This document shows, piece by piece, positions 1 to 64,000 of a stretch of 64,000 bases of DNA. Both the position numbers and the translations under genes were made by a program. Source of the stretch: an uncultured Pseudomonadota bacterium (GTDB lineage Bacteria > Pseudomonadota > Alphaproteobacteria > RF32 > CAG-239); the NCBI GenBank assembly GCA_902494875.1, contig CABUUO010000002.1, positions 32,547 through 96,546 of the forward strand. The letters are read 5' to 3'. Below the pieces are notes generated by a model that worked only from the letters and a program-made list of their open reading frames with translations, was not told where the DNA came from and did no database searches. Position 1 is the stretch's first letter. Every line of letters begins with the position of its first letter.

Positions 1-1
1 C

Positions 2-1919: not shown

Positions 1920-1939
1920 ACTTGATTTAGGAAAAAGCA

Positions 1940-4619: not shown

Positions 4620-4621
4620 TC

Positions 4622-6310: not shown

Positions 6311-6326
6311 AGTTTAGGAGAGAATT

Positions 6327-7460
6327 ATGGCAGGCGAACAGGAAAAAAGAAGCGCGTCCAATTCGATGCAAAAGGCTATGCGCAAGCTCAATACGGTTGA
6401 GGAATATTACGCTAAGCTGATTTGTAACTTTTCCAATGAAGCACGATTAAAACTCTATCGCAAAATCGCCTCGCTGATGAGAAACCGCTTTTCTCTGATG
6501 AGTGCTTTGGATATGCTTCATGACAGCGCCAGCGACGGCGGCAAAAGTCCGGGAGAACCGATGGCTATCGCCATTGCCTGCTGGGGTCGGGCGCTCAACA
6601 ACGGTTTGACGTTTTCCGACGCTCTGAAAGGCTGGGCTCCGGACCGTGAACGACTGATGCTGTCGGTCGGTGACGTCTCAGACCTGGAAGGCGCTCTGCT
6701 CAACCTTATTCGTGTTACCGAAGGTTCAACAAAGATGATCCGTCCGATTATCGGCGCAATTGCTTACCCGACCTTTTTGTTTTTGATGGCGGTTTTGATT
6801 ATTTACGGTATCGGCGTATATATGGTGCCGCCGATGTTGGATGCGGCGCCCGGCGTTCGTTGGCGAGGACTGGCAAAAGATCTGGTTGATGTTTCGGCCT
6901 GGATTCAACAATATTGGCTGGTTGCATTTTCAGCACTGCCGATCACAATGCTGGTCATCTACCTGACAATCGGACTCTGGACCGGACCTATCCGCGCCAT
7001 TGTCGATAATATGCCGCCTTATTCACTTTATAAGGTGTTCGTCGGCATCAGTTGGCTGCTGGCCTTGTCCGCACTGGTTAAGGGCGGTACGCCGGTATCA
7101 ACGGCGATGCGGGCCTTGAGGCGCGACGCGACCCGCTATTTGAAAGAAAGAATTGACAAGACGCTGGTCTTCATCAACAACGGTGACAACCTTGGTATTG
7201 CCCTGAAAAAAACCGGACTTGATTTTCCCGATAAGGAAGTTATTGCCGATTTAAAAATTTATTCGGAATTGGATAACTTTGAAGAAGCTCTGGAATCGCT
7301 GGCCAATCAATGGCTGGAGGAGTCCGTTTATCTGATTGAGCAGAAGGCGGCTTTGTTAAATATGGCGGCAATTCTAAGCGTCGGCGGCGTTATCGCCTGG
7401 GCCGTCATGGGCACCTTTGAAATGCAAGACCAAATTACCAGCAGTATGGGACAAGGCTGA
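6327..7460 (+). CDS. Pilus inner-membrane platform protein (GspF/PilC/BfpE/R64-PilR family)
   Basis: 377 aa polytopic membrane protein immediately after the ATPase. An AGGAG ribosome-binding site precedes it. Confidence 0.65.
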   Translation: MAGEQEKRSASNSMQKAMRKLNTVEEYYAKLICNFSNEARLKLYRKIASLMRNRFSLMSALDMLHDSASDGGKSPGEPMAIAIACWGRALNNGLTFSDALKGWAPDRERLMLSVGDVSDLEGALLNLIRVTEGSTKMIRPIIGAIAYPTFLFLMAVLIIYGIGVYMVPPMLDAAPGVRWRGLAKDLVDVSAWIQQYWLVAFSALPITMLVIYLTIGLWTGPIRAIVDNMPPYSLYKVFVGISWLLALSALVKGGTPVSTAMRALRRDATRYLKERIDKTLVFINNGDNLGIALKKTGLDFPDKEVIADLKIYSELDNFEEALESLANQWLEESVYLIEQKAALLNMAAILSVGGVIAWAVMGTFEMQDQITSSMGQG

Positions 7461-8047
7461 TGGAAAAGGCAAAAATAATTTTTAATAAAGCAATAAAAAT
7501 TTTTCATTCACCGGAAAGAATCGGCATTGCCGCGGCCGGAGCCGTTGTCATAATTGCCGCGGCAGCTTGGTTTTTGCTTAAAAGTCCGAAACCAGACGCC
7601 AATATTGTTACGGCCGGCAATCAAATCAGCCTGTTGACAGATAATGTACGAAAATTTTACCGTAATCGTCCCGATGCTTGGGGACTAAATACGCAATCTG
7701 TTTTGAAAAATGCAATTGCTCCCCAGGAAATGGTTCAAAACGGCAAATTGATTAACGCATTAGGAAAGGAAACCTTGGTCGGTGCGGATTCAAACGGCAC
7801 GACGGTTATGCCCGGCAGCAGAAATTTTGCCATTACTTTCAGAGGACTGGATTATGAAGAATGCGTTGAACTGTCCGCACTGGCTCCCGACGAAAAGACA
7901 GCATTGAGCCTTACTTCGGAAACGATTGCCAACGAGACAGAAACAATGTTTATCTGGGGCGGAGAACATCCGCTTCCGATAACAAGAAAAGCTGCGGAAG
8001 AATTCTGCAAACAACAAAATTCTCTCATTTGGAACATATTGTTATAG
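7460..8047 (+). CDS. Divergent pilin-like protein (minor pilin candidate)
   Basis: N-terminal hydrophobic helix. Its C-terminal region matches the pattern of the two downstream pilins (F-x-G-L-x-x-[DE]-x-C-V-x-L-[AS], with a second Cys near the C-terminus). Its start overlaps the platform gene's stop (TGATG). Confidence 0.4.
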   Translation: MEKAKIIFNKAIKIFHSPERIGIAAAGAVVIIAAAAWFLLKSPKPDANIVTAGNQISLLTDNVRKFYRNRPDAWGLNTQSVLKNAIAPQEMVQNGKLINALGKETLVGADSNGTTVMPGSRNFAITFRGLDYEECVELSALAPDEKTALSLTSETIANETETMFIWGGEHPLPITRKAAEEFCKQQNSLIWNILL

Positions 8048-8127
8048 TTTCTGTTTTACAGAATAAAGTTATATGTTTCAAAGCGTAATTATGACTAAAG
8101 ATAGGCTTATTTATCTTTTATTAATAA

Positions 8128-8142
8128 GTTATAGTTAAGATG
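8128..8142 (+). promoter_or_regulatory. Candidate -10 / conserved upstream motif gttataGttaAgatg for pilin gene 1
   Basis: Same 15-mer (2 mismatches) found upstream of pilin gene 2; contains TATAGT. Confidence 0.25.
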
Positions 8143-8183
8143 TGAGAAGAAAAAACTTTGAAGTGTGTTTTAGGAGAAAAGAG

Positions 8184-8798
8184 ATGAAGAGTTTATTCAA
8201 AAATGAGCAGAGCGGACGTTCCATGGTGGAAATGCTCGGCGTGCTCGCGATTATCGGCGTATTGTCGGTCGGCGGTATCTCCGGTTATTCGAAAGCCATG
8301 GCTAAATTTAAACTGACCAAGGCGCAAGACCAGTTGTCCATGATGATTATGAACATCAGAACCGCATTTGCAACCTCCCCTGGTTATCCGGGTTTAACAA
8401 CAAAAAATGCTATTGATTACAAGCTGGTATCTCAGGAAATGGTCGTTGCCGGAAGTACTTCGTTGATTAACGCATTTGGCGGCGATACGATTGTTGAAGC
8501 AATTAACGGAGCGGATGGTACTCCTAACGGTGCATTCCAGATTGTATTCTCCGGTCTCGGTAAAGATGTCTGCGTCAGCTTGGCTACCTCTGATTGGGGT
8601 ACTGACGGCTTAATTGGTATCGGCGTTGCCTCTACCAAAATCAGTAAAATTACAGGTACGCCGTCCGCTGCAGTTTCATTTGCAGGTGGCGGCAGTTTGA
8701 ACGGGCCTAAGGCTCTGCCGTTGTCTATTTCTGACGTTCGTAAGTCCAATGCCTGTGGTTCGGATAACACCAACTCGATTACCTGGGTTTATAACTAA
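8184..8798 (+). CDS. Type IV prepilin (major pilin candidate 1)
   Basis: Leader ...NEQSG followed by RSMVEMLGVLAIIGVLSVGG, with Glu at +5 after the predicted Gly cleavage site. An AGGAG ribosome-binding site precedes ATG 8184. An upstream in-frame GTG at 8142 is an alternative start. The C-terminus has a disulfide pair. Confidence 0.75.
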   Translation: MKSLFKNEQSGRSMVEMLGVLAIIGVLSVGGISGYSKAMAKFKLTKAQDQLSMMIMNIRTAFATSPGYPGLTTKNAIDYKLVSQEMVVAGSTSLINAFGGDTIVEAINGADGTPNGAFQIVFSGLGKDVCVSLATSDWGTDGLIGIGVASTKISKITGTPSAAVSFAGGGSLNGPKALPLSISDVRKSNACGSDNTNSITWVYN

Positions 8799-8824
8799 AG
8801 TTATAAGAGGCATAATTTTCTATA

Positions 8825-8856
8825 AAAAGGTGTGTTTTGACACACCTTTTTATTTT
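8825..8856 (+). terminator. Rho-independent terminator after pilin gene 1
   Basis: GC stem (ggtgtg...cacacc) followed by a T-run. Confidence 0.5.
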
Positions 8857-8874
8857 ACCCGAAATAAATCTATG

Positions 8875-8889
8875 TTATAATTAGGATGA
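8875..8889 (+). promoter_or_regulatory. Candidate -10 / conserved upstream motif gttataAttaGgatg for pilin gene 2
   Basis: Contains TATAAT. It is the paralogous motif to 8128-8142. Confidence 0.25.
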
Positions 8890-8915
8890 TATTATTTAAT
8901 TAAGAGGGGTCAAAA

Positions 8916-9503
8916 ATGAACAGAAACGAACAATCCGGAAGATCAATGGTTGAAATTCTCGGCGTTTTGGCCATTGTTGGTGTGCTTTCTGTCGGCGGTA
9001 TTGCCGGCTATTCAAAAGCGATGGCTAAATTTAAGCTGACAAAGGCACAAGACCAACTGCAGATGATGGTGATGAATATCCGCACGGCTTACGTCACTTC
9101 CCCGGGATTTCCGGATCTTAATACCGCGCATGTAATTGAATATAAACTGGCCTCCTCCGAAATGATGGTTGATTCAAAAAATCTGCTGAACGCCTTTGGC
9201 GGAAAGGTTTATGTTGAGGCAACCGAAAATCTGGAAAGAAATTCCGACGGCGCGTTTGCTATTCTTTATGCCGGTCTGGGGCGGGACTCTTGCGTCAGTC
9301 TGGCAACCTCCGACTGGGGTACGGACGGACTAATCGGGATTTACGTTGATTCGACGACCGACCCGATTAACAAGATCGAAAATCCTAACGCATTGTCCAA
9401 AGAACAACTCAAACAACCTTCAGAACTTCCCATTTCGCTGACAACGGCACGAGAAAAATGCAGTTCGGACAATAACAACCTTATAACCTGGTATTATCTT
9501 TAA
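8916..9503 (+). CDS. Type IV prepilin (pilin paralog 2)
   Basis: The N-terminal 60 aa are nearly identical to the upstream pilin (MNRNEQSGRSMVEILGVLAIVGVLSVGGIAGYSKAMAKFKLTKAQDQL). The C-terminal domain is diverged. Confidence 0.75.
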   Translation: MNRNEQSGRSMVEILGVLAIVGVLSVGGIAGYSKAMAKFKLTKAQDQLQMMVMNIRTAYVTSPGFPDLNTAHVIEYKLASSEMMVDSKNLLNAFGGKVYVEATENLERNSDGAFAILYAGLGRDSCVSLATSDWGTDGLIGIYVDSTTDPINKIENPNALSKEQLKQPSELPISLTTAREKCSSDNNNLITWYYL

Positions 9504-11244: not shown

Positions 11245-12252
11245 TTGAAAAAGATTGTACAGTTTATTTACAGAAAGTGTGATTATATGGTTAAACTAAA
11301 CAGTATCCGGTTTTCTGACATCTATATTACGCCGGACAAAACCTGCTTTATTCCCGACGGCGTGACCCAGAACGGTCTGGCCATTATCAAACCCGAAGAT
11401 TTTGACGTTTTTTATAATTTGATTGAGGAATCTTGGGACGGAGAAAATCCCAGCTATTCGGTACTGTATGAAAACATATTTTACCGCGTTGAACGCACCG
11501 TAGCCATTTACGGCGTTCAATACTGCGCCCGAAAGATGCCCGAGAAAGTGCCGCCGCTGGCGGCTCTTAACTTTCCGCGCGAACTGTGCCGTCATCTGCT
11601 TTCGCTCAGTTCGGCCAGCGGCCTGATTTTATGGTCAGGACCGACCGGCGCAGGAAAAACGACTTCCATCTCCGGACTGCTGAAAGAATATCTGACCATG
11701 GAAGGCGGTTTTGCCTATACTATCGAAGACCCAACCGAAATGCCTTTGGACGGCATTTACAAATCAATGAAAGGCGGCTTGGGACTTTGTAAACAAACCC
11801 AGCCGGTTAACGGCAACTGGGGTGCTTCGCTGAAGTCTGCCCTGCGTTCAAAACCACGTTTCATTTTCGTCGGCGAAATCCGCACGCCGGATACGGCCAG
11901 CGAAGTTCTGCGCGCCGCAACTTCAGGCCATCTGGTTTTATCGACCATCCACGCCAACAACATTGCCGACGCCATTAACTCGGTAGTTAAATATGCCTCT
12001 TCCACGACCATGAGCGAAGAACTGGCCTATGACCTGTTTTCACGCGGCATTCTCGGCGTAATGCACCAAACGCTGATCGGCGTTCATGACAAAAGACCGG
12101 CAATCAATTATCTATTTGCCAATCCGGATACGACCAAGGGCGACCAAGTCCGCGGCATTATCAAAGGCGGCAATCTCAATCTCGGAACATCCATTGAAAC
12201 GCAGATGACCAGAATGCGCAAAGGAATGAGCCTGTTTCCCGACTTGTCTTAA
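11245..12252 (+). CDS. PilT/PilU-like pilus retraction ATPase
   Basis: 335 aa with Walker A motif SGPTGAGKTTS and the conserved Asp/His boxes of PilT-class ATPases. An alternative start is at 11287. Confidence 0.7.
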   Translation: MKKIVQFIYRKCDYMVKLNSIRFSDIYITPDKTCFIPDGVTQNGLAIIKPEDFDVFYNLIEESWDGENPSYSVLYENIFYRVERTVAIYGVQYCARKMPEKVPPLAALNFPRELCRHLLSLSSASGLILWSGPTGAGKTTSISGLLKEYLTMEGGFAYTIEDPTEMPLDGIYKSMKGGLGLCKQTQPVNGNWGASLKSALRSKPRFIFVGEIRTPDTASEVLRAATSGHLVLSTIHANNIADAINSVVKYASSTTMSEELAYDLFSRGILGVMHQTLIGVHDKRPAINYLFANPDTTKGDQVRGIIKGGNLNLGTSIETQMTRMRKGMSLFPDLS

Positions 12253-48538: not shown

Positions 48539-48614
<76 letters not shown>

Positions 48615-48620
48615 ATTCCT

Positions 48621-48648
48621 AAAGCACCGCCAAGCGCGGTGCTTTTTT
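48621..48648 (+). terminator. Terminator between the two tRNA-Ala genes
   Basis: gcaccgc-caa-gcgcggtgc followed by TTTTTT. Confidence 0.5.
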
Positions 48649-48654
48649 ACAAAC

Positions 48655-48730
48655 GGGGTCATAGCTCAGTTGGGAGAGCGATTGGTTCGCAATCAATAGG
48701 TCGGGAGTTCGATCCTCCCTGGCTCCACCA
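48655..48730 (+). tRNA. tRNA-Ala (anticodon CGC)
   Basis: GGGGTCATAGCTCAGTTGGGAGAGC, G3:U70, anticodon loop TTCGCAA, with CCA encoded. Confidence 0.8.
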
Positions 48731-48837
48731 ATTTTTCAAAAGCACTGTTTCTTTCGGCAGTGCTTTTTTGTCAGCCGCTCAAACTTCGCTTAACGCTCGT
48801 TTTCCCGGGGGAGGATCACTTCGGCATCTAATTGCGC
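48717..48837 (+). repeat. Direct repeat copy 1: the last 14 nt of tRNA-Ala(CGC) plus 107 bp of downstream flank, including the terminator hairpin
   Basis: It is about 97% identical to 48929-49050 (2-3 differences). The two copies are separated by a 91 bp spacer. Confidence 0.8.
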
Positions 48838-48928
48838 CGTCATTGCTTTTGCAATCCCGTCTCAATAAGATGTTACGAAGAACTGGCAGAACCCAAACAC
48901 CATACACAGGTGTTTGGGTCTTAGCGTT

Positions 48929-49050
48929 CCCTGGCTCCACCAATTTTTTAAAAGCACTGTTTCTTTCGGCAGTGCTTTTTTTGTCAGCCGCTCAAACTTC
49001 GCTTAACGCTCGTTTTCCCGGGGGAGGATCTCTTCGGCATCTAATTGCGC
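48929..49050 (+). repeat. Direct repeat copy 2: a duplicated tRNA-Ala 3' end (ccctggctccacca) plus flank
   Basis: Tandem duplicate of 48717-48837. It has the shape of an att site generated by site-specific integration into a tRNA gene. Confidence 0.8.
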
Positions 49051-49153
49051 TTATTTTATCTTCCCGGTTAATCACACCCTCGCAAATTCACTCTTTTATT
49101 TTTCGCTTTAGCTCTTAATATATTTATCAGACAATAAAATAAGGAGAAAAACG

Positions 49154-51902: not shown

Positions 51903-52140
51903 TTAACAAAGTACCTTTTTTTGTGAATTTGTTTATAACTTGTTTTACAACTTCATTATCGTTTGTAAAGAATTTTATGCAAAAAAACAAGCCATAAATA
52001 AAGCTTAATACATTAAATAATTATCTGTTGTTCAAAGAATAGGCAAAATAGATTAAAATTCTTTTAAATTTATTGAAAATTTTACTTGCAAAAAAAAATA
52101 ATTCGCTGTATTAAAGCTCTTGTTGTTACGAGTTGATTAT

Positions 52141-52217
52141 GCGCCCGTAGCTCAATTGGATAGAGCATCTGACTACGGATCAGAAGGTTGTAAGTTCGAA
52201 TCCTGCCGGGCGCGCCA
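52141..52217 (+). tRNA. tRNA-Arg (anticodon ACG)
   Basis: GCGCCCGTAGCTCAATTGGATAGAGC, anticodon loop CTACGGA, acceptor GCGCCCG/CGGGCGC, with CCA encoded. There is one A-C mismatch in the T-stem. Confidence 0.75.
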
Positions 52218-52223
52218 GTTTTT

Positions 52224-52256
52224 AAAGGCTTCCTTAATCTTAAGGAAGCCTTTTTC
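52224..52256 (+). terminator. Terminator after tRNA-Arg
   Basis: ggcttcctta-atc-ttaaggaagcc followed by a T-run. Confidence 0.6.
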
Positions 52257-52440
52257 ATTTAACACCCGCAGTATTCGAATCAAGGTTCGTTCTATCTCAT
52301 AAGTTCGCAAAGCTCACTAACTCGCGGCGGTCACTCCACTTGTATCGCTTGATACACTTCGTTTCTCTTGCTTTCAAGCTAACAAATTGTCACCTGCCGG
52401 GCGCACCATCAGGAGTTTTTTATGGTGGGAAATTTTCCGC

Positions 52441-52737
52441 CTAGACCTTTTCACACTGCGGATATACGCGATCCCTGATAATCAGCGTATTCTCATCACC
52501 CTTGTTCCAAAAGACTACCCCGGTGGCTTCATTTTCATATTTAGCTCCCGAGGCCGCAATCGTTTGAATCAAAAGATTATTGACGCCGTTTATTCTCAAG
52601 ACCATTGAATCGCCGTTAAAGGCCTGAACAGAAACAATCTGATCTCCGCATTTCCAGTCCACATGTTTTTCCACTTCAGGCTTATGCGCGCAACCAGCCA
52701 GCAAAACCGGGAGCATCAACAGTAAAAACTTATTCAT
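52441..52737 (-). CDS. mliC: Membrane-bound lysozyme inhibitor of C-type lysozyme
   Basis: Lipobox LPVLLAGC. AASGAKY and VFWNKGDE...IRDR closely match E. coli MliC (SASGARY, VFWSKGDEA...RDR), and the two Cys are conserved. Confidence 0.8.
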   Translation of the reverse strand: MNKFLLLMLPVLLAGCAHKPEVEKHVDWKCGDQIVSVQAFNGDSMVLRINGVNNLLIQTIAASGAKYENEATGVVFWNKGDENTLIIRDRVYPQCEKV

Positions 52738-52839
52738 ACCTTATCCTTTCCGTCCATAACTTTTACTTAGATGTATTCCTTAAACTTCAAAAATCAAGGT
52801 ATAAAAAAAACGCCGGTCATTGGAGACGGCGTTTGAATG

Positions 52840-53991
52840 TCAGGCAACGAACAAATCTTTGATTTTATCCAAAAAGCTTTTGGATTCCGGCTGGCAGGCA
52901 TCATCTTTGCTGATAGCGCGAAACTCTTCCAAAAGCTCTTTCTGGCGGGCCGAAAGATTGACCGGCGTTTCAACCCGGAGTTTGACAAACAGGTCGCCGC
53001 GGCGGGTCGAACGCAGCATGGTCATTCCCTGACCTTTTATTTTGGCAACCTGATCATTTTGGGTTCCGGGTTCAATGTCCAGTTCAATCTTTTCGCCGTC
53101 TATTGAAGGAATATTCACTTTTCCGCCCAGAGCGGCACAAGTCATCGAAATCGGTACCGAAGCGTAGAGGTTAGCGCCCTCGCGACTGTAAAGCTTGTGA
53201 TCTTTGATGTTGATAAAGACATAAAGGTCTCCGTTTTCGCCGCCGCGCAGACCGGCCGTTCCTTCGCCGGAGATACGCATTCTGGTGTCGTCTTCGATTC
53301 CGGCCGGAATTTTAACTTTCAGCGTTTTTTCCTGAGCAATGAAGCCATCTCCGCCGCAGGTTTTGCATTTGTCTTTTACCAGACGGCCGCTGCCGCCGCA
53401 TTTGGGGCATGTGGTTTCAACAATGAAAAAACCGCCCTGCTGACGACGGATTTTGCCGCTGCCGCGGCAATCGGGACAAACCGGCGCCTCTTTGCCGTCG
53501 GCGGTTCCGTGACCGTGACAGTCTTCGCAAACCCTGGTGGTCGGAATTTTAATTTCCTTTTCAACACCGGCAAAAGCTTCTTCCAGAGAAATTTCCAGAT
53601 TATAGCGCAGATCCGAACCGCGTTCGGCCGAACTGCGCGGATGGGCACCGCGACCGCCGCCCATAAACTCGGAAAAAATGTCGGAAAAGACATCGGAAAA
53701 ACCACCGGCTCCGAAATTGAACTCAAAACCGCCGAACGGATTGCCGCCGGCGCCGTTCATACCGCCGGCAAAAGCCTGATGCCCGTAACGGTCATAGGCC
53801 GCTCGCTTCTGTTCGTCTTTCAAAACCTCATAGGCTTCGTTAATTTCTTTGAATTTGGTTTCCGCTTCCTGATTGCCGGGGTTGCGGTCCGGATGATATT
53901 TCATGGCCAGACGACGGTACGATTTTTTGATTTCCTCACCGCTGGCCGTTTTGCTTACTTCCAAAAGTTCGTAATAATCTTTTTCGGTCAT
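52840..53991 (-). CDS. dnaJ: Chaperone protein DnaJ
   Basis: J-domain YYELLEVSKTASGEEIKKSYRRLAMKYHPDRN, a Gly/Phe region and four CxxCxGxG zinc-finger repeats. Confidence 0.9.
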   Translation of the reverse strand: MTEKDYYELLEVSKTASGEEIKKSYRRLAMKYHPDRNPGNQEAETKFKEINEAYEVLKDEQKRAAYDRYGHQAFAGGMNGAGGNPFGGFEFNFGAGGFSDVFSDIFSEFMGGGRGAHPRSSAERGSDLRYNLEISLEEAFAGVEKEIKIPTTRVCEDCHGHGTADGKEAPVCPDCRGSGKIRRQQGGFFIVETTCPKCGGSGRLVKDKCKTCGGDGFIAQEKTLKVKIPAGIEDDTRMRISGEGTAGLRGGENGDLYVFINIKDHKLYSREGANLYASVPISMTCAALGGKVNIPSIDGEKIELDIEPGTQNDQVAKIKGQGMTMLRSTRRGDLFVKLRVETPVNLSARQKELLEEFRAISKDDACQPESKSFLDKIKDLFVA

Positions 53992-54202
53992 TTCTCTTAC
54001 ACTGCAAAAAAAATTAATTAAAAGCTAGTTGTTATTTAAGGTTTTTAGAGAAAGAAAGCAAGCTTTTTGAATAACTAATTAAAAATTAAGCATTTAATAT
54101 TACACTTTTGTTAAAAGAGATTCTGTTGGACAAAAATATTTGCCAAAATTGCAAAATGATGGTAATATGTGTTCATATATATAAATATTTTGGAGACTTG
54201 AA

Positions 54203-57200
54203 ATGGCCAGATATACCAATGATAACGTTAGAAACGACACCGACTTTCTGAATTTTATCAAAAACGAATACGGATATGACAGCACCGAGGCCATTCCGGC
54301 ATTTGAATACAATGCGATTCTGTATAGATTCAAAGCAAAAGAAAATGACTTTGACGACGAAGATTTTGCCGCTCTGGAAGCTTATGCGGACAATGAAAAG
54401 CTTCAGGACATTGTAGACATTTACTATCCGGAAAAAACAGTCAAAGACTTGAGTATGGAAGACACTGCTTTTGTCCAGGCCATTGCCCGGGAAACGGCCA
54501 ACAACCCCGACGTCTCCCTTGATATAATCAGAGAATCGCGCCGCCAGAAAAAAATGCGGGCGATAGATGAATCAATAAACGAAAGTGCACCTCAACAATT
54601 GGATGCAATAAAAGATGGCAAAAATGTCACTCTAATCGTGGATGACTCCGAATTTTCCAAAGCACAGATTTCATACTACGGAAAAGACAATGGGGATAAG
54701 GATCTGATCAAAATTGAATTATTTGATCTGGAAAGCAAAAATATTGGTTATGCCATTATGCCATTTACAGGCGGAGAATCTTTCGGTGAAATAAATGGTC
54801 ATAAATTTGAAGTCAGATCCCCTGACGAAAAGCAGACGACCTTTAAATTAGACAATATTCAGAAAAATCTAACAAATACCTCTCTTGGCAATATGGTTGG
54901 ACTTATTGATGATGCCTTTAAGGAAGAATCCCGAGAAATACAAGAGGTTGCACATTATGTTGCCATGGCAGAACGCGCAACAAGTCTTGCCGCTTTTAAT
55001 TTTTGGCGAGATGATTTTAGAGAATTAAAACACTACTCCAAAGAAGAACTTGACGGCATTATGAAAGCCCATGAGGTTTATCTGCAGGCTCCCGACGAGG
55101 TTCAAAACCACGAAACGCTGAAAGCCATGGACGCCAATTATGAAAGTACGCACGGCGATCTGTTTGTCGAGACAGTTGAAACCGCCGAAAAAGACATTGC
55201 CGCCTATGCCGACGGAACCTTAACCATTGACGCCGACGCTTATGACAGCATGGAACAATATATTTCCACTTTCGGGCGCGGCACCAGAAAAGACGCCAAC
55301 GGCGAGTTTATCTACACGCCGACAGCATTAAAAGCGCTTGAAAGACTTAAAACCGACCGTGAAAAGGCACCGGCCCAAAGAACGGTTTCCGGCGCCGACA
55401 AAGAAGCAACGCTGGCCGGGATTGTTTCCGGCCTTCAGAGAAACGCCCAAGAACGCGAAAAGCAACAAAACCGCGGCGCGGCTGGAATTATAATTAATGA
55501 AACGGCAGAAAAAGAACTGCAAAAAGACGAACGCAAAAGCGGCATTGACAAACTGCAGCAAAATGAAGGCGAAAACGCCCGCATCCGCAGTGACCACAAC
55601 CTTTCCAACGAGCAGAAACTGGCTGCAGTCAGACTTTTGGTCATGTCCAACATGGAAGTCATTTCCGCCGAAGACTACCAAAAATATTCAACCGACATTC
55701 GCAGCGAAGATATTCAAAAAGCTCAGGAAGCCTTTGAATTTGTCGACAATGCCGAAGAAAAGGTCAAAAAGCCCGAAGAATATAAGAATCAAATGGTTGA
55801 CGTGCTGCTGAACCGGGATTTGGCCGAGCTGATGACACCGGAAATGACGACCGTCGCCTATGACAATCTGCAAAAACGAATCGCCGAGGCGGAAAAGCAG
55901 GCAAAGAAAGAAAAATCCGACGAAGCAGACCAAAACGTTGCCGCTCTCAATACTAAACTGGAAGACGTTTTATCCCGCATGGACAGCCTGCAGGGCGATT
56001 TCAAAAACAAACGCGGCTTTTATCTTTTAGACATTACAAATGCCGCCGACGCCTATGACGGCTATATGCATATGTTTGATGTTCGCCAGAAAGACCTGGA
56101 CGCCAAAAACAAGGCTTTGGAGCAGGACAAAAAAGAACTTGACGCCGAAGCAGACAAAGAGCGGATTGCCGAAATTGACAAGGAAATGGCGGCAAACGAA
56201 GCGGTTAAAAACGAATACGGACAATCTCAGCAGGATATGGACGAGATTATTGCCACCTATGATGAAAGATGGAATATTCCGAGCGGCAAGAATCCCCGCG
56301 ATACGGCGATCAGCTTTAACGACCGCATCAAAACCGGCAGCAAGATTCTCGACGAGCTCAAATTTGACGAAGAAACGCTCGGCAGCGAACTTTTGACCGA
56401 AGTCAGCAAATTCAAGTTCAATGACAAAGACGGCAAACCGATTCCGCAGTTTATCGACCCCCAAAATCCGGAAACCAAGAGCGACGTATGGCGCGAGGGC
56501 CTGGAAGTTGATCCGAACGGACAACTGGCTACGGTTTTGAAACTGGCAGGAAACGACTCCCTGATGGAAAATCTGGGTTCAAAAGAAAAAATCACCAAAG
56601 AAAAAATGGTTGAAGAACTCAAGAGCAACGTTCCGTTCAAGCTGTTTGAAATATACAACGCCGAGGAAACCATCCGCGGCGCGGTTGAAGATCCGGAAAA
56701 ATTCACAACAAAAAAAGAACAGTATCTGGCTGAATTTCAGGCCAAGCTGAATAATCCGGAAATTCCGCTCGGCATTTCTCCGGAAGGCTATAACGCGGCA
56801 ATCGACGATCAGGTCAACAAGGTTGAGGTTTATGCCAACCGCCTGGACCGCAAACTCGGCAAAGCCAACACCGAATTTACCAAAGCAGTATTGTTTGAGC
56901 AGGTGCAGAAGATTGACCGACAGGCTCCGAATCGCGGCAAGAAGAGCAAAGACATTAAGAAAGGCGCCATGAAACGCGCCTTGTGGGGCGTGGCAATGGG
57001 CGGAACCATGGCTTATGTCGGTTCGCGTCTGGTTACCAACGCTGTCGCTACCGGAGGCATTTCCGTTATCGGAAGCTCTGCCTTGGCACTGGGCACCGCC
57101 GTTACCGTCGGCGCCGCAGCGACGGCCATGCAAATATGGTCCCGTAAGAAAGCCGCCAAAAAACGCGGTGAAAAATACGGTTGGAAAGAATTCAAAAAAG

Positions 57201-58891
57201 ACAAAATGCTGCACGCTTCCATCTTAACGACAACCTTGGCTTGCGCTTCAGCCGCATTCGCCATGTCCAACGCACCGGAACTGTCAATCCCGGCCGCCGC
57301 CTGCGCTATCGGCTCGTTCGGCATGGGCGCCGGCCTGCGTTTTGCCCAGCCGTATCGAGAAATGCGCCTGAAAGGCCACGGCAAAGTTGCAGCCTTTGCT
57401 CTCGGCGCCGCCAACGCCGCTGCCGTTTTTGCCGGAGGATATCTGGGCAGACAACATGGTTTGGGCGACATTACGCCGACGCAGCATGAAGAAATCACCG
57501 GATATAAAGACGTTAAGGTCGGTGAGGTGAAAACCTACAGCGAAGACCAGATTGCCAAGGTTACCGAACGCAACAATACTGACAGTATGTGGGAATACCG
57601 CGGCGAAGGACCGCATGACATTCCGGCATACCGCAATCCGGACAATTATTCAAACGAAGCCTGGTGGACACCGGAACAGCATGACAAGGCCATTGCCGCT
57701 TTGAAAGAGCAGATGCCGAAACTGGGCTGGAAAGAAGGCGTCGGCAACGAAGAGGTTATGCTGCGCAAGCTGGCTTCTTTTGAAAGGCTGCACCGCAACA
57801 GCGATTTTGTGTTGCCGGACGGTCAAACCGTCGGCGAAAAGTTCGGCGACTACAAAGCCCTGCTGGACGGGCTGCTGGAAGGCAAACTGACGCCGGAAGG
57901 CGCCAAACAGCTTGACGTTATTCAGTATAACGTTGGCGAAAACGGCCACTCCAAAATTTTGGACAGCCTCGGCGGCGAACTGTATTCTTATCAGGACCAT
58001 CCGCACGGAATCCACAGCGAAGACGTTATGGATAAAGTGCCGGTCAAGACCATGGTTGACGACAAAGTCAACGCTCCCGGCGGCGGCGTTTTCGGATGGG
58101 TGGTATCTTCCTGGAACAAGCTGAAAGACAAAATTCGTCCGGGAACCAAAGCCGACAAGGTAGAGAAAAAGGAAAAGCCGAAACCCGAGCCCGAAAAGCC
58201 GATTATCCCGGTGATTGTTCCCGAGAAGCCGAAGCCGGAACCGGAAAAACCGGTTGTGGTACCGGTACAGCAGGAAGAGAAACCAAATAATCTGATGCTT
58301 GACGAATATAAAATCGTTTACGGCATAGAACCGGAAACGACCCCCGGCAAAGACAAGGCCTGGAAAGAATATTGCCAGCGCGTGGAAGAAGAACGCAAAG
58401 CTGCCGCTCCTGACAAGGATATGAACACGTTTCTGCTTGACCGCCGTCAGAAGCTTGACGAAACCATTATGAACAATGTTGTCAGCGAAAACGACGTCAC
58501 GGAAGCAGGCAAACCTATTCGCAGCGATTATATGGTCAAAAAAGCCAAAGATGACCGCGGCAAGGCCGGCGTTGTCATGGAAGCACGTCAGAATCTGATG
58601 CAGAGCAACCTGACCAAAGACAATTTTCTGCACAAGATTACGCTAAGCCACTTTACCAAGTTTATGGAGCACTTTGTCAAGCACGACGAAGTCGTAGCTG
58701 ACGGTTCGCGCAACATTGCCCTTAATCCGAAGCTTAAAGACAAGTATAAAAAAGAGGGCAGCAAAGTTGCCATTGTCGACCTGAACCAATATCTGGTCGA
58801 AGATAAACCTTTGGACACGGCCAAACAAAAAGTCAGCGGCAAAGATGCCCGTCAGGCCATGACAGACCTGAAAAAGACTTATGAGCGTTAA
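54203..58891 (+). CDS. Giant hypothetical protein (1562 aa): acidic/coiled-coil regions, a central Gly/Ala-rich hydrophobic block and Pro/Lys/Glu repeats; candidate secreted effector or surface protein
   Basis: Uninterrupted ORF with a GGAGA ribosome-binding site and no signal peptide. It has KPKPEPEKP(I/V) repeats near residue 1320. Residues about 910-1090 contain 4-5 hydrophobic Gly/Ala-rich segments. Confidence 0.55.
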   Translation: MARYTNDNVRNDTDFLNFIKNEYGYDSTEAIPAFEYNAILYRFKAKENDFDDEDFAALEAYADNEKLQDIVDIYYPEKTVKDLSMEDTAFVQAIARETANNPDVSLDIIRESRRQKKMRAIDESINESAPQQLDAIKDGKNVTLIVDDSEFSKAQISYYGKDNGDKDLIKIELFDLESKNIGYAIMPFTGGESFGEINGHKFEVRSPDEKQTTFKLDNIQKNLTNTSLGNMVGLIDDAFKEESREIQEVAHYVAMAERATSLAAFNFWRDDFRELKHYSKEELDGIMKAHEVYLQAPDEVQNHETLKAMDANYESTHGDLFVETVETAEKDIAAYADGTLTIDADAYDSMEQYISTFGRGTRKDANGEFIYTPTALKALERLKTDREKAPAQRTVSGADKEATLAGIVSGLQRNAQEREKQQNRGAAGIIINETAEKELQKDERKSGIDKLQQNEGENARIRSDHNLSNEQKLAAVRLLVMSNMEVISAEDYQKYSTDIRSEDIQKAQEAFEFVDNAEEKVKKPEEYKNQMVDVLLNRDLAELMTPEMTTVAYDNLQKRIAEAEKQAKKEKSDEADQNVAALNTKLEDVLSRMDSLQGDFKNKRGFYLLDITNAADAYDGYMHMFDVRQKDLDAKNKALEQDKKELDAEADKERIAEIDKEMAANEAVKNEYGQSQQDMDEIIATYDERWNIPSGKNPRDTAISFNDRIKTGSKILDELKFDEETLGSELLTEVSKFKFNDKDGKPIPQFIDPQNPETKSDVWREGLEVDPNGQLATVLKLAGNDSLMENLGSKEKITKEKMVEELKSNVPFKLFEIYNAEETIRGAVEDPEKFTTKKEQYLAEFQAKLNNPEIPLGISPEGYNAAIDDQVNKVEVYANRLDRKLGKANTEFTKAVLFEQVQKIDRQAPNRGKKSKDIKKGAMKRALWGVAMGGTMAYVGSRLVTNAVATGGISVIGSSALALGTAVTVGAAATAMQIWSRKKAAKKRGEKYGWKEFKKDKMLHASILTTTLACASAAFAMSNAPELSIPAAACAIGSFGMGAGLRFAQPYREMRLKGHGKVAAFALGAANAAAVFAGGYLGRQHGLGDITPTQHEEITGYKDVKVGEVKTYSEDQIAKVTERNNTDSMWEYRGEGPHDIPAYRNPDNYSNEAWWTPEQHDKAIAALKEQMPKLGWKEGVGNEEVMLRKLASFERLHRNSDFVLPDGQTVGEKFGDYKALLDGLLEGKLTPEGAKQLDVIQYNVGENGHSKILDSLGGELYSYQDHPHGIHSEDVMDKVPVKTMVDDKVNAPGGGVFGWVVSSWNKLKDKIRPGTKADKVEKKEKPKPEPEKPIIPVIVPEKPKPEPEKPVVVPVQQEEKPNNLMLDEYKIVYGIEPETTPGKDKAWKEYCQRVEEERKAAAPDKDMNTFLLDRRQKLDETIMNNVVSENDVTEAGKPIRSDYMVKKAKDDRGKAGVVMEARQNLMQSNLTKDNFLHKITLSHFTKFMEHFVKHDEVVADGSRNIALNPKLKDKYKKEGSKVAIVDLNQYLVEDKPLDTAKQKVSGKDARQAMTDLKKTYER

Positions 58892-58902
58892 GGATCGCGT
58901 CA

Positions 58903-60900
58903 ATGAAAAAAACGGAAATTTCTTCCGAAGAAATTGAAGTCATTCGGAACAGTGCGCCTTATCGGGAATTTGTCAAGGCGCACCCCGATGCTTCGCCGGA
59001 AAAATTTATTGAAGAACAGATCAAAGATCTTCAAGGGTATTTGTTTAAGAAAAAATATAACCGCGCGTTGACGCCGCTGCAACATTATTTATCGCTCGGA
59101 TCCGCCCGACGTCAGGAACTGCTGGCGGAATGGGGCGCTTCTGCATCTGCGGTTGCGGACAACGTGCGGACGGATGAAGCGCCAAACAGTCCGGCCGAAG
59201 AAAAAAACATGACCGACAGAGAGAAAACGGAAGAAAAAAGCAGTGCTGAACATCCGCTGCCGGCGGAACATAACAACCAAAAAGAAAAAGAGAAAGCGCC
59301 GCGACAGGAAATTCGCCGTTATCTGAAAATGGATCCGGCCGAACTGCTGGTTAATGCATTTGATTATGTCGTTGATGACAAAGGTTACATTTTGGCCGCG
59401 GACAAACCGATGGTTCTACGGTTGTGGAACAATGAAAAATTCCGCACCGGATGGGATAATTTCATTCAAAAAGTCGAAAATGCCGAAATTGCCCTGCCCC
59501 GCTCAAAGCTTTATACGGCGGCAGTCGCGTATATTTGTGAACGGTTGGGCAGAGAACAGGCGCCGAAAGAACATTTGCAGGCTGACCGCCTTATTGATTT
59601 TTCAACCGACAGGCTGCTTAAGGACTTGGCGGAAAACATTCCCGAACTGGCTCGGGACAAAGACGGCAATACACCGGAAAACCGCCAGAGAATCGTCGAT
59701 TTTATGCGTTTTACGGAAAGCGGCAAAAAAAGCCGCGAGGCGATAAGGAACAAGGACTGGGATTTTCTGCGCAAAGAATACATCCGGTTTCCGAAAGTCC
59801 CGACGCAGATTTTATTTAACATATACCAAAACCAGCTGCAAAAAGAGCAAAATGACGAACATTTCAACTATCTGCTGGAAAAATTTACTGCCGATTCCGA
59901 TGACAAGGAAAGGCTTCTTGTTCTGTTGAAAGCCGTATACAAAGACGATGCCGGCCATGGCGGCGACCGTGCCGAAATGTTGCGCCGGATTATCCTCATG
60001 CGTTTTGAAGACATCCGCCGCGGAAAATGGAAAATAAGCAACGATGACGAACTGAAAGCGATCGAAGACTTCATCAGGGCGGAAAAAGAAAGAAATGCAG
60101 ATTTTGCCGCCAAGCTTGAAATTAATCAGGCAATAGCAAATTACAAAAAGAAAAAGGCAGAGAAACCGGTGCCGGAGGAAGCGGAAGACACGGCAGCAGT
60201 CATCGTGCGCGAAGGTATTGCCGCAAAAGGCGATGAATCGCCACAAGCGGCAAAGCCGGTTTCAACAGAGTGTACCGAAGCGGCGGCAGAGGCCGAAACC
60301 ACCGGCAAACCAGAGCATCTTTCCACAGAAGAAAAGGCGGAAACAAAAGCCGTCAAAACGGCCTCCGAAGCTTCAGACGCCCATGAAAGCTCAGATGACC
60401 AAGCTACTGCCGTCTGGCAGAAAAAAACCGTTCTCTCATGGAAAAAATGGGCGCAAAAAAATGACAAGACCGTTGCGGAATATGTGCCGGAAGAAGATCC
60501 GCAGGCTCTGGGTATAAAAATATACAAGGACGAAGCCGCCCAAAAAGCCGAACAGGCCGAAACGGACATTTTATATAAGAACCCGAAAGAAATCGTCGTT
60601 ACCGGAAAAACCGACGTCAGCCTTTTTGAAAACATTGTTGCCGAAGCCAAGAAAAACAGTCCGGAAATTAAGTTCGGCGAGATAAAATCTCCTGACTTCA
60701 AAGCCAAATTATGGCTGGCCTGCCTGCGGGACAAAGATATTAAAATTATTGATGCACCCAAAATAAAAGACTTGCAGGGCGCCGATCCGGCGATTGTCGA
60801 GGAAATAAAAAAAATCAAAGCCGAGAGATACAAACATTATACGGAAACCAAAAACAAGAAAGACAAAACCGTTCCGATGCCTCAGAGAGACGGCCGCTGA
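58903..60900 (+). CDS. Large hypothetical protein (665 aa), Lys/Glu-rich
   Basis: Uninterrupted ORF 12 bp after the giant gene. No recognisable domain. The terminator at 60917-60945 follows it. Confidence 0.45.
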   Translation: MKKTEISSEEIEVIRNSAPYREFVKAHPDASPEKFIEEQIKDLQGYLFKKKYNRALTPLQHYLSLGSARRQELLAEWGASASAVADNVRTDEAPNSPAEEKNMTDREKTEEKSSAEHPLPAEHNNQKEKEKAPRQEIRRYLKMDPAELLVNAFDYVVDDKGYILAADKPMVLRLWNNEKFRTGWDNFIQKVENAEIALPRSKLYTAAVAYICERLGREQAPKEHLQADRLIDFSTDRLLKDLAENIPELARDKDGNTPENRQRIVDFMRFTESGKKSREAIRNKDWDFLRKEYIRFPKVPTQILFNIYQNQLQKEQNDEHFNYLLEKFTADSDDKERLLVLLKAVYKDDAGHGGDRAEMLRRIILMRFEDIRRGKWKISNDDELKAIEDFIRAEKERNADFAAKLEINQAIANYKKKKAEKPVPEEAEDTAAVIVREGIAAKGDESPQAAKPVSTECTEAAAEAETTGKPEHLSTEEKAETKAVKTASEASDAHESSDDQATAVWQKKTVLSWKKWAQKNDKTVAEYVPEEDPQALGIKIYKDEAAQKAEQAETDILYKNPKEIVVTGKTDVSLFENIVAEAKKNSPEIKFGEIKSPDFKAKLWLACLRDKDIKIIDAPKIKDLQGADPAIVEEIKKIKAERYKHYTETKNKKDKTVPMPQRDGR

Positions 60901-60916
60901 ATCTTCATCTTGCAAT

Positions 60917-60945
60917 AAAAAACCCCGTCATATGACGGGGTTTTT
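60917..60945. terminator. Rho-independent terminator (serves the 665-aa gene; also lies downstream of dnaK on the other strand)
   Basis: aaaaaaccccgtca-tatg-acggggttttt. Confidence 0.65.
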
Positions 60946-60962
60946 CCGTAACGAAAGATTGT

Positions 60963-62873
60963 TTACTTCACTTCTTCAAAGTCAGCATCAACGACTTTTT
61001 CGTCTTTCGGCTGCTCTGCGGAAGCTCCGGCTTCAGGACCTGCGGCGCCTTGGGTTCCGGCCGCACCTTCTGCCTGTTTGTACATAGCTTCGCCAAGCTT
61101 CATGGAAGCCTGCATCAAACTTTCGGTCTTGGCTTTGATATTGCTCAAATCATCGCCTTCCAGAGCGGATTTCAGAGTTTTGATTTCTTCTTCAATTTTG
61201 CTCTTTTCAGCCGGGCTCAGCTTGTCACCGTGTTCTTTGAGCGTTTTCTCGGTGCTCAAGACCAAAGATTCACCCTGGTTTTTGGCTTCAACCAATTCCT
61301 TGCGCTTTTTATCGGCTTCGGCATTGGCTTCGGCATCCTTAACCATCTTTTCGATATCGGCATCGGACAAGCCGCCGGAAGCCTGAATGCGAATGGTCTG
61401 TTCTTTGTTGGTCGCCTTATCTTTAGCCGAAACGTTGACAATGCCGTTGGCGTCAATATCAAAGGTTACTTCAATCTGCGGCATACCGCGCGGTGCAGGG
61501 GGAATACCGACCAAATCGAACTGGCCAAGCAGCTTGTTGTCCGCAGCCATTTCGCGTTCGCCTTGGAAAACACGAATGGTTACGGCACTCTGACCGTCTT
61601 CGGCAGTTGAAAAAACCTGAGACTTACGGGTCGGAATGGTGGTGTTGCGGTCAATCAGGCGCGTAAAGACACCGCCCAACGTTTCAATACCCAGAGACAG
61701 CGGGGTAACGTCCAGCAGCAATACGTCTTTCACATCGCCCATCAGAACACCGCCCTGAATGGCGGCACCGACGGCAACGACTTCATCGGGGTTAACGCCT
61801 TTGTGCGGCTCTTTACCGAAAATTTCCTTTACCTTTTCCTGAACTTTCGGCATACGGGTCATACCGCCGACCAGAATAACTTCGCTGATTTCGTTGGCTT
61901 TCAGACCGGCATCGGCCAAAGCTTTTTTGCAGGGCTCGACGGTTCTTTCAATCAAATCGCCGACCAAGTCTTCCAGTTTGGCACGGGTCAGTTTGATGTT
62001 CAGGTGTTTCGGACCGGTTGCATCAGCCGTAATAAACGGCAGATTGATTTCGGTCTGAGTGGTTGAAGACAATTCGATTTTGGCTTTTTCGGCCGCCTCT
62101 TTCAAGCGCTGCAAAGCCAGACGGTCATTTTTCAGATCAATACCGGATTCTTTTTTAAATTCTTCAACCAAGTAGTCCAAAATACGACGGTCAAAGTCTT
62201 CACCGCCGAGGAAAGTATCGCCGTTGGTGGATTTTACTTCAAAAACGCCGTCACCGATTTCCAAAATGGAAATATCAAAGGTACCGCCGCCAAGGTCATA
62301 AACGGCAATGGTGCCGGAAGCCTTTTTATCCATACCATAAGCCAAAGCCGCAGCCGTCGGCTCGTTAATGATACGCAAAACGTCAAGACCGGCAATTTTA
62401 CCGGCATCTTTAGTGGCTTGGCGCTGGGAATCGTTAAAATATGCCGGAACGGTAATGACGGCTTTTTCAATTTTCTCGCCAAGATAACTTTCGGCATATT
62501 CTTTAATCTTTTGCAAAACAATTGCCGAAATCTGCGAAGGCGCATATTTTTGGCCTTTGACTTCGACCCAGGCATCACCGTTGTCACCTTCAACAATTTT
62601 ATAAGGAACGATGTTTTTGTCTTTGCTGACTTCCGGCGAATCAAAACGACGGCCGATCAACCTTTTAATGGCAAACAGCGTGTTTTCCGGGTTGGTTACG
62701 GCCTGACGTTTGGCCGGAAAGCCGACCAGGCGCTCCGTATCCGTAAAGGCAACCATTGAAGGGGTAGTTCTGGCACCTTCAGAGTTTTCCAAAACCTTAG
62801 CTTCTCCGCCTTCCATTACGGCAAAGCAGGAGTTGGTGGTACCAAGGTCAATACCGATTACTTTATTGCTCAT
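60963..62873 (-). CDS. dnaK: Chaperone protein DnaK (Hsp70)
   Basis: [19 protein letters not shown] and the C-terminal EEVK-type tail. 636 aa. Confidence 0.95.
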
Positions 62874-62994
62874 ATTTTTATTTCCTTTTGTTATAAACTT
62901 ATATCTAAAATCTTTCTATAAGCTTATATAGGGAGACAAAACGAGCTATGCAAGTCTGCAAGACTAAATTTTGCAATTTTTTTGGAAACGGCGT

Positions 62995-64000
62995 TTAATA
63001 TTTGGTGCGGCCGGAAATTTCATAACCGGTATAACCGTCAACCACAGAATTGGCAAAAGCAAAATCCGTCGAATTAACGGCATGGACACGATAAAGCGTT
63101 TCTCCCTGTTCTACGCGATCGCCGACCTTTTTCAACAAATCAAGCCCAGCACCCGGATATTGCGCCGCGCCGGCCAACACGCCGATGCGGTTGATGCGTT
63201 CGTTGTCTATGCTTTCCACCACACCGCTGATGTTGGATACGATATCGCGAGTCAGATGTCCCAACTGCGGCTGCGGCGCCTTGCCCTGAGCATGAATAAT
63301 CTTGTTAATGGCTTCCAGCGCGCGACCGGACGACAGAATTTCCTTGGCGACATGATATCCCTGTCCGCCGCGGAGTTTAGGATCAAACTCCAAGATACGG
63401 CCGGCCAGAAAAAGCGACTTTTCTTTCAAGTCCTGCGGCGCATCTTCCTTATTGCGCAAAACCTTCATAACGTCTCTGGCTTCCAGAACCGCGCCGACGC
63501 CGTTGCCAATCGGTTCGCTGCCGTCGGTAATGACTGCGTCAATTTCAATGGAAAGCATATCCCCGACATATTCTATCAGTTTGCGCAGGCGCATGGCTTC
63601 GCCGGTGCGTTTAATACGGGAATTGGGACCAACCGGAATGTCTATGACCAAATGGGTTACGCCGGCGGCCAGCTTGATGGCCAGAATAGAAGCGGCAATA
63701 TGGTGAAGCTGAGTCAGACCGATGTTGCGTTCAACCGAAGACACCAATTTGTTGGCCGCAGCGATGGACAGGCCTTCATAATTGACAATGGCGCCGCGGT
63801 TTTCCTTAATCAGGCGTTTCAAATCCGCTTCATCCAAATCTACATTGGCCAAAACCGCCATAGTATCCGCCACGCCGGCGCAGGACGTCAGCGAACGGGA
63901 AGCTGTTTTGGGCATCGGCAAACCATAGGCCGAAACAATCGCGGTAATGATGATGTCGGTCTTGTTGCCGGGAACGCCTCCCAGGCAATGGTGGTCAACC
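62995..64000 (-). CDS. Thymidine/AMP phosphorylase family protein (glycosyltransferase family 3), C-terminal part; the N-terminus lies beyond the window end
   Basis: The frame stays open to the window edge. Its regions resemble the pyrimidine-nucleoside phosphorylase core and C-terminal domain. Confidence 0.65.
   Translation of the reverse strand, partial: VDHHCLGGVPGNKTDIIITAIVSAYGLPMPKTASRSLTSCAGVADTMAVLANVDLDEADLKRLIKENRGAIVNYEGLSIAAANKLVSSVERNIGLTQLHHIAASILAIKLAAGVTHLVIDIPVGPNSRIKRTGEAMRLRKLIEYVGDMLSIEIDAVITDGSEPIGNGVGAVLEARDVMKVLRNKEDAPQDLKEKSLFLAGRILEFDPKLRGGQGYHVAKEILSSGRALEAINKIIHAQGKAPQPQLGHLTRDIVSNISGVVESIDNERINRIGVLAGAAQYPGAGLDLLKKVGDRVEQGETLYRVHAVNSTDFAFANSVVDGYTGYEISGRTKY

Follow-up and report, generated by a model that had tools for sequence, protein, structure and literature searches.

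A long-standing operon between dnaK and dnaJ in uncultured gut Alphaproteobacteria encodes a member of a lineage-specific family of predicted membrane proteins

Introduction

The chaperone genes dnaK and dnaJ form a canonical heat-shock operon, for example in Escherichia coli and in many Alphaproteobacteria. Here, we describe a locus in which this unit is physically split by two genes on the opposite strand. The locus lies in a 64,000-nucleotide stretch of DNA (hereafter the window; positions 32,547 to 96,546 of contig CABUUO010000002.1, assembly GCA_902494875.1) from an uncultured bacterium of the alphaproteobacterial lineage RF32, CAG-239, and the two genes between dnaJ and dnaK are referred to as A and B. 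An earlier reading made without any comparison to relatives (the sequence-only reading) had taken the pair for a horizontally acquired insert with the profile of an effector or surface protein. Comparison with related loci showed that A-B is an ancestral, native, expressed-looking operon.

The predicted architecture of A recalls proteins of the TonB/TolA type, in which a membrane anchor is followed by a rigid proline-rich or helical periplasmic spacer and a C-terminal contact domain. A was also compared with the translocators YopB, IpaB and AopB of type III secretion systems (T3SS) and with phage tail tape-measure proteins. The reading that we prefer, at slightly better than even odds, is that A-B is an old, vertically inherited operon near dnaK and dnaJ, and that A represents a lineage-specific membrane protein family acting as an envelope-spanning scaffold.

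Results

Two intact opposite-strand genes separate dnaK from dnaJ

Both chaperone genes are bona fide orthologues, with all expected Pfam domains above cutoff. As in the canonical operon, they are orthodox genes that lie on the same strand in the order dnaK-then-dnaJ, and dnaK has a good putative sigma-32-like promoter; open reading frame (ORF) calls and Pfam matches agreed with the sequence-only reading on the coordinates and on this minus-strand order. Unlike in the canonical operon, however, the two genes are 6.97 kb apart, dnaJ has a conserved putative sigma-32-like promoter of its own, and relatives show additional layouts in which a deoA-dnaK block is inverted. The intervening 6971 bp contain the plus-strand genes A and B and a bidirectional terminator (Table 1). 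Two further details of the earlier description were borne out, namely the AT-rich intergenic stretch, which corresponds to the dnaJ-A spacer with a G+C content (GC) of 0.23, and the terminator following the two genes, which is a perfect 14-bp hairpin. The genes around A-B (tsf, rpsB, a gene for a GyrB/ParE-type topoisomerase subunit, MliC and thymidine phosphorylase) are housekeeping genes.

Both proteins had been called unrecognisable, and this proved correct: single-sequence, per-member and profile scans gave no match above threshold to A or B in Pfam, NCBIfam, PHROG, PADLOC or the sequences of the Protein Data Bank (PDB). PADLOC models did not match either protein at E≤1, and Pfam did not match seven members of the A subclade at E≤0.1. 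Among 34 of the longest and most divergent members, Pfam gave three isolated single-member matches (E≤0.001), none of which was shared. A match to Wtap in the scans of A and B was rejected as coiled-coil noise, with 24 bits against a cutoff of 35.

A and B are old residents of the locus

Orphan genes that split a "universally conserved" operon, bounded by an AT-rich spacer and a terminator, looked horizontal from sequence alone, and the idea of a recently acquired island inserted into the dnaK-dnaJ operon and encoding an effector or surface protein draws on exactly these features. Base composition, however, does not set the segment apart. A has a GC of 0.485 and a GC at third codon positions (GC3) of 0.545, and B has values of 0.473 and 0.505, while the means over the window's 39 long genes are 0.487 ± 0.025 and 0.540 ± 0.049. 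No repeats flank the A-B segment, the nearest tRNA (52141-52217) is not at its borders, and no mobility function is encoded by the neighbouring genes that were scanned. Apart from one tRNA, an Rfam scan of 52000-64000 detected no known RNA element.

Synteny argued in the same direction. All relatives of A assignable to the subclade show the order dnaJ(-)/A(+)/B(+)/dnaK(-); A and B lie between dnaJ and dnaK in all 13 loci, and no empty site was seen among them. Across these loci, DnaK is 90-99% and DnaJ 80-98% identical, while identities range from 27 to 96% for A and from 26 to 95% for B; the arrangement is thus kept down to 27% identity in A. The presence of intact A and B in 13 loci also showed that the ORFs are not assembly artefacts. 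Clusters at 90% identity held 46 member sequences for A and 52 for B, with the listed members coming from NCBI, ENA and Logan. The ratio of nonsynonymous to synonymous substitution rates (dN/dS) was 0.08-0.35 for A and 0.15-0.24 for B, compared to 0.01-0.08 for dnaK and dnaJ; A and B are under purifying selection, about ten-fold looser than that on the chaperone genes.

Because relatives carry homologous genes and the composition is unchanged, A-B is not a recent insertion. The A family is, moreover, broadly and apparently vertically distributed in the lineage, and we regard the island explanation as very improbable. The case calls for caution with such orphan genes, whose ancestral state became visible through the comparative data.

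The A-dnaJ junction is widespread while the deoA-dnaK block changes orientation

A metagenome scan seeded with DnaJ added 71 further loci; 66 loci with a recognisable dnaJ were counted (the loci of relatives carry L numbers). Immediately upstream of dnaJ, 47 of the 66 have an A-family gene in divergent orientation, and this junction reaches lineages in which DnaJ is only 69-77% identical. Written in the orientation of dnaJ, the order is deoA> dnaK> <B <A dnaJ> in the window's subclade, deoA> dnaK> <A dnaJ> in L053, and <dnaK <deoA <A dnaJ>, with or without two small genes, in the L022 and L046 groups. The L029 group has <dnaK <deoA dnaJ>, the L047 group deoA> dnaK> small ORFs dnaJ>, and L056 has A> dnaJ>. 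Several lineages have a dnaJ with no A nearby (L029, L032, L033, L047, L050, L057).

In a midpoint-rooted neighbour-joining tree of one protein, DnaJ, the state <A dnaJ> occurs on both main branches, and the window's layout is confined to one monophyletic subclade. The best explanation is that inversion of the deoA-dnaK block, and not gain of foreign DNA, accounts for most of the differences between the layouts. L087, a 9270-nt sequence from a human-gut metagenome, appeared to place A next to a canonical dnaK-dnaJ unit and was discarded after blastn comparison. Its nucleotides 1-8585, which end inside dnaK, match L022 at 97%; past nt 8585 there is no match to L022, and the 3' end of dnaK is followed 241 bp on by the start of dnaJ. 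L087 is therefore probably chimeric, joined during assembly within the highly conserved dnaK gene, and a two-inversion scenario built on it was dropped.

Homologues of A were also found away from the chaperone genes. In Candidatus Enterousia and related metagenome-assembled genomes (MAGs; L005, L012-L017), homologues of 1271-1551 amino acids (aa) occur in surroundings that are not conserved (in L005, for instance, between rpmG and rplU-rpmA), and neither B nor dnaJ was found near any of them.

dnaJ and dnaK each carry a putative promoter of their own

The dnaJ-A spacer (53992-54202, 211 bp) is a divergent promoter region. In eight of nine window-type loci, a motif CTTG-N17-CC(C/T)TAAAT lies about 40 nt upstream of dnaJ, and a scan with the pattern CTTG-N16-18-CYTWHNT also gave matches in L053, L059, L020, L029 and L047. 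Upstream of dnaK, CTTG-N17-CCTATAT is present in the window, L007, L008 and L009, and L001 has a variant with ATTG at -35. Both motifs fit the sigma-32 consensus, and they are probably sigma-32-like promoters. RpoH promoters of Alphaproteobacteria have a conserved TTG at -35 (PMC3441632). The chaperone genes may tolerate the split because dnaK and dnaJ would each be expressed from a conserved sigma-32-like promoter of their own.

Just upstream of the -35 element of the putative dnaJ promoter lies an AT-rich block that is mostly invariant over nine aligned loci (24 invariant columns at positions 75-116 of the first aligned sequence), while the spacer around it varies among these loci. The block may be an UP element or an operator. 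On the other side, the A-B operon has a sigma-70-like promoter candidate, with a GGAG at 54192-54195 between it and A. The terminator at the far end separates the convergent ends of B and dnaK, and a comparable hairpin is visible in most other loci for which the sequence of the B-dnaK spacer is available.

The persistence of the A-dnaJ junction in 47 of 66 loci while the deoA-dnaK block flips, together with the approximately 210-bp spacer whose blocks are conserved across species, could mean that A is functionally tied to DnaK/DnaJ, as a membrane platform or a client, and co-regulated with them through the shared divergent promoter region. However, the conserved blocks can be explained by the sigma-32-like dnaJ promoter and its upstream AT-rich element, and A has a separate, sigma-70-like promoter candidate. 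A is also unlinked from dnaJ in Ca. Enterousia, the dnaJ genes of several lineages have no A nearby, and in small genomes that rearrange slowly, genes can stay linked by inertia. We therefore consider a functional tie to the chaperones quite improbable.

A belongs to a lineage-specific family with a confidently modelled core

An exhaustive hidden Markov model search with a profile of A aa 470-1100 yielded 173 family representatives (clusters at 50% identity) at E≤1e-3, of which 123 reached E≤1e-30. The full-length matches are mostly 900-2245 aa long and span the whole core, and shorter fragments were also retrieved; most of the best 150 of the 173 matches cover the core end to end. In a scan of genomes, the family occurred only in MAGs labelled uncultured Alphaproteobacteria, "proteobacterium" or Candidatus Enterousia; the members from the last of these, which belongs to the order Rs-D84, are the more distant ones. 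The Rs-D84/Enterousia group comprises gut bacteria with genomes of 0.67-1.6 Mb, and Rs-D84 has been proposed to depend on partner organisms (PMC12306168).

The sequence-only reading had described A as made up only of low-complexity acidic, coiled-coil, repeat and hydrophobic regions, with no recognisable domain. The latter part stands, but the former does not, as aa 470-930 fold with high confidence when a deep alignment is provided. With a multiple sequence alignment (MSA) of 70 sequences, AlphaFold2 modelled aa 470-1300 with a mean predicted local distance difference test score (pLDDT) of 81.8 and a predicted template modelling score of 0.71, and the approximately 460 residues of aa 470-930 had pLDDT >90. 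In the model, an all-alpha domain that includes a small beta element precedes five long helices. For aa 900-1562, with an MSA of eight sequences, the pLDDT was 44, too low for the model to be used, with values of up to 78 in the C-terminal domain. A Foldseek search of the A model against the PDB returned no fold match (best E 0.16), and the core fold, as modelled, is without counterpart among solved structures. The novelty of A consists in the lack of any detectable relative, which is not a demonstrated new mechanism.

Against the viral structures of BFVD, tail tape-measure proteins headed the Foldseek list, and a weak PHROG match was found over the hydrophobic region (E 0.09). Such proteins are, like A, long and mostly helical with internal Gly-rich hydrophobic segments, and A could be imagined as a remnant of a prophage tape-measure protein with B as an associated phage gene. 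All viral fold matches were non-significant, however (best E 0.084, TM <0.13), A has no significant sequence or fold similarity to these proteins, and no phage genes are nearby. In addition, A occupies a fixed chromosomal site in many species, and purifying selection acts on it. A prophage origin was rejected on these grounds and has, in our view, almost no chance of being correct.

A is predicted to cross the inner membrane five times

Across 70 homologues, the five helices following the core are uncharged and moderately hydrophobic, with median best 19-residue Kyte-Doolittle values of 1.26-1.58. Lysine and arginine residues number 9.2 per sequence before helix 1, 8.1 in loop 2-3 and 2.4 in loop 4-5, and the part after helix 5 is net acidic. 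The N-terminal ~930 aa of A are acidic and have no signal peptide. By the positive-inside rule, the pattern of K/R-rich loops and the signal-less acidic N-terminus suggest an orientation with the N-terminus inside and the C-terminus outside. On this topology, A would be a polytopic protein of the inner membrane, with its C-terminal third carried beyond the cytoplasm on a TonB-like spacer. A proline-rich stretch at the position of this spacer (aa 1323-1363) is present family-wide in the consensus, and no tandem DNA repeat underlies it in A.

The resemblance to TonB and TolA is one of architecture only: in A, too, a predicted membrane anchor would be followed by an extracytoplasmic region with a (K/E)P-rich spacer and a conserved C-terminal domain. 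A differs from them in having five predicted membrane helices instead of one, and a predicted cytoplasmic region of ~930 aa with a large folded core that has no equivalent in TonB or TolA. Pfam and NCBIfam gave no TonB_C or TolA match for A or its homologues, and no ExbBD or TolQR gene adjoins A.

A also bears a likeness to T3SS translocators, in which, as in A, a helical coiled-coil region precedes Gly/Ala-rich hydrophobic hairpins. The family profile matched the first hydrophobic hairpin of AopB (PDB 3wxx_B) over A aa ~900-980 (window 56900-57150), with an E of 0.0022 and 19 bits. This weak match could speak for A as an exported protein that inserts into a partner or host membrane in the manner of a translocator, a pore-former or an Inc protein, with B as its cytoplasmic chaperone or co-effector. 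However, the match is short, compositionally biased and near threshold, and may be compositional. A is three to four times longer than the translocators, and none of the family members scanned matches Pfam SseC or any other translocator model. The genes beside A are dnaJ, dnaK, MliC and deoA, with no T3SS, type IV secretion system or class II chaperone gene among them, and within the scanned part of the window, secretion-type machinery was seen only as a type IVb pilus cluster at a distance of 45 kb. The 930-aa acidic N-terminal region with its well-folded core would also be atypical for a secreted translocator. Export of A seems improbable to us. Of the effector or surface profile once assigned to these proteins, the membrane character of A and its probable extracytoplasmic part are retained. 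The effector role is unsupported: neither a secretion signal nor a known effector domain was found, and no secretion machinery is encoded next to A.

A is a mosaic of deep allelic types

The N-terminus of A comes in two unrelated types among the relatives, with 13-20% identity between them. Strains of the same species also encode variants of 1412, 1336 and 1195 aa, which lack, in frame, aa 126-275, aa 126-275 and 309-384, and aa 122-488, respectively. The 1412-aa variant (P0002) is otherwise 99.5% identical to A, and all these deletions lie upstream of the conserved core (window 54578-55670 for aa 122-488).

A similar division was observed after the membrane helices. At aa 1083-1300, the type I loci (the window, L008, L001, L007 and L009) are 82-89% identical to each other and 67-69% identical to L006, while identity between type I and type II is 17-21%, even where the DnaJ proteins of the species are 95-96% identical. 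L001, L003 and L004 are sister species by this measure (DnaJ identity 95-96%). Nevertheless, over aa 470-1300 the A protein of L001 shows 65-89% identity with those of the window, L007 and L009 but only 17-33% with those of L003 and L004, whose aa 470-1085 group with L011. A is therefore mosaic, and its deep allelic types do not agree with the species tree.

B is a soluble protein found only in the window's subclade

B has no hydrophobic segment and is soluble. The alignment divides it into an N-domain (aa ~190-400), an acidic linker (401-499), a C-domain (500-630) and a basic tail. B was found only in the window-type subclade, and no B-like domain was detected in other A-family proteins. A possible origin of B as a duplicate or split-off of A was rejected, as the two are unrelated (hhalign probability 0.3%).

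Compared to the near-identical locus L002, 65 of the 91 mismatches over 11.9 kb fall inside 59077-60036, and the synonymous divergence is 0.205 in this segment and 0.005 in its flanks. L002 is closer to L008 within these coordinates, which identifies the segment as a tract of recombination between strains.

Coordinates and neighbouring features

The features of the locus and of the pilus cluster are listed in Table 1. Directly downstream of dnaJ, at 52441-52737, lies a gene for an MliC-type inhibitor of c-type (animal) lysozyme, which tblastn also placed downstream of dnaJ in nine relatives; its presence is consistent with life in an animal host. Further away, a tRNA-Ala pair (anticodons GGC and CGC; 48539-48730) overlaps a mechanically called ORF (48570-49118) that has no Pfam match and is probably not a gene. 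A type IVb-pilus-like cluster occupies 297-9503 plus 11245-12252 of the window and is notable in a lineage that has been proposed to depend on partner cells.

Table 1. Positions of the genes, protein segments and putative regulatory elements in the window (aa, amino acids)
Feature	Position	Strand	Description
dnaJ	52840-53991	-	383 aa; full-length type I J-protein; Pfam DnaJ 7e-30, DnaJ_CXXCXGXG 3e-14, DnaJ_C 1e-47
Putative sigma-32-like promoter of dnaJ	54034-54062	-	CTTGCTTT-N-CCTTAAAT, 42 nt upstream of ATG
Conserved AT-rich block	54073-54095	.	AACTAATTAAAAATTAAGCATTT; two AATTAA half-sites, just upstream of the dnaJ sigma-32-like -35
Sigma-70-like promoter candidate of the A-B operon	54140-54168	+	TTGCCA-17-TAATAT, extended TG; consensus match only
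ORF A	54203-58891	+	1562 aa
A aa 1-125	54203-54577	+	Variable N-terminal module, "MARYT" type
A aa 126-275	54578-55027	+	Optional module, present or absent among same-species strains
A aa 470-927	55610-56983	+	Conserved all-alpha core, predicted cytoplasmic; small beta element at aa 737-760
A aa 928-1082	56984-57448	+	Five Gly/Ala-rich hydrophobic helices, predicted membrane domain
A aa 1083-1300	57449-58102	+	Post-membrane, predicted periplasmic domain; "type I" allele; low AlphaFold2 confidence
A aa 1323-1363	58169-58291	+	Pro/Lys/Glu spacer, KPKPEPEKP..., 29% Pro over 41 aa
A aa 1365-1562	58295-58888	+	C-terminal domain; 58-97% identity in window-type loci except L011
ORF B	58903-60900	+	665 aa; start 12 nt past the A stop
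Recombination tract in B	59077-60036	+	~1 kb, codons 59-378
Bidirectional intrinsic terminator	60918-60945	.	14-nt arms, 100% complementary; A5 and T5 runs on either side
dnaK	60963-62873	-	636 aa; Pfam HSP70 E 1.5e-283
Putative sigma-32-like promoter of dnaK	62926-62954	-	CTTGCATAG-N-CCCTATAT
Secretin	297-1919		Pilus cluster
PilO, R64-type	1940-3220		Pilus cluster
T2SSE ATPase	4622-6310		Pilus cluster
T2SSF platform protein	6327-7460		Pilus cluster
Two PilS/bundlin-like pilins	8142-8798, 8916-9503		Pilus cluster
Second T2SSE-type ATPase	11245-12252		Pilus cluster

Discussion

Our best guess is that A serves as an envelope-spanning scaffold with B as its cytoplasmic partner. The two genes make up an operon that has a candidate promoter and a terminator of its own and is long-standing in a clade of uncultured gut Alphaproteobacteria. 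Proteins of the A family, 900-2200 aa in length, would begin with exchangeable cytoplasmic N-terminal modules, continue with the core of ~460 aa and cross the membrane with five helices, after which deeply diverged extracytoplasmic alleles would lead through a TonB-like proline-rich spacer to the C-terminal domain. Such a scaffold would couple a cytoplasmic assembly, including in the window's subclade the co-transcribed soluble B, to the periplasm and the outer layers. Recombination would keep the variable parts of A diverse because these would face an external partner, which could be a phage, a partner cell or the host.

Several points weigh against this picture. The idea of a scaffold is drawn from architecture alone. 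The predicted helices are only borderline hydrophobic (Kyte-Doolittle values of 1.0-1.65, obtained without a dedicated topology predictor), and the extracytoplasmic part of A and the whole of B are without a confident structural model. Some of the variable modules of A would be cytoplasmic, and an external partner does not obviously explain these. The homologues in Ca. Enterousia lie elsewhere in the genome without B, so that B is not essential to the function of the family. Finally, the vertical reading relies on the midpoint-rooted neighbour-joining tree of one protein, without a formal reconstruction of ancestral gene orders.

In a bolder form of the scaffold idea, which we think unlikely, an undescribed envelope-spanning apparatus, specific to reduced-genome, partner-dependent gut Alphaproteobacteria (Rs-D84 and relatives), would have the A family as its core. 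A new alpha-helical machine in the cytoplasm would be wired through the five helices to an exchangeable outer domain that contacts or recognises partner cells, host or phages; its allelic cassettes would pass between species by recombination, and B would act as a cytoplasmic adaptor specific to the subclade.

The group in which the A family occurs includes Rs-D84, which apparently depends on partners by means not known (PMC12306168). The genomes may be only about 1 Mb in size, yet the 6.7-kb operon has been retained under purifying selection. Since the family is large, its confidently modelled fold is unmatched, its cassettes are shuffled across species and the operon is kept in a small genome, A-B is a concrete candidate for lineage-specific envelope or interaction biology in this poorly known gut clade.

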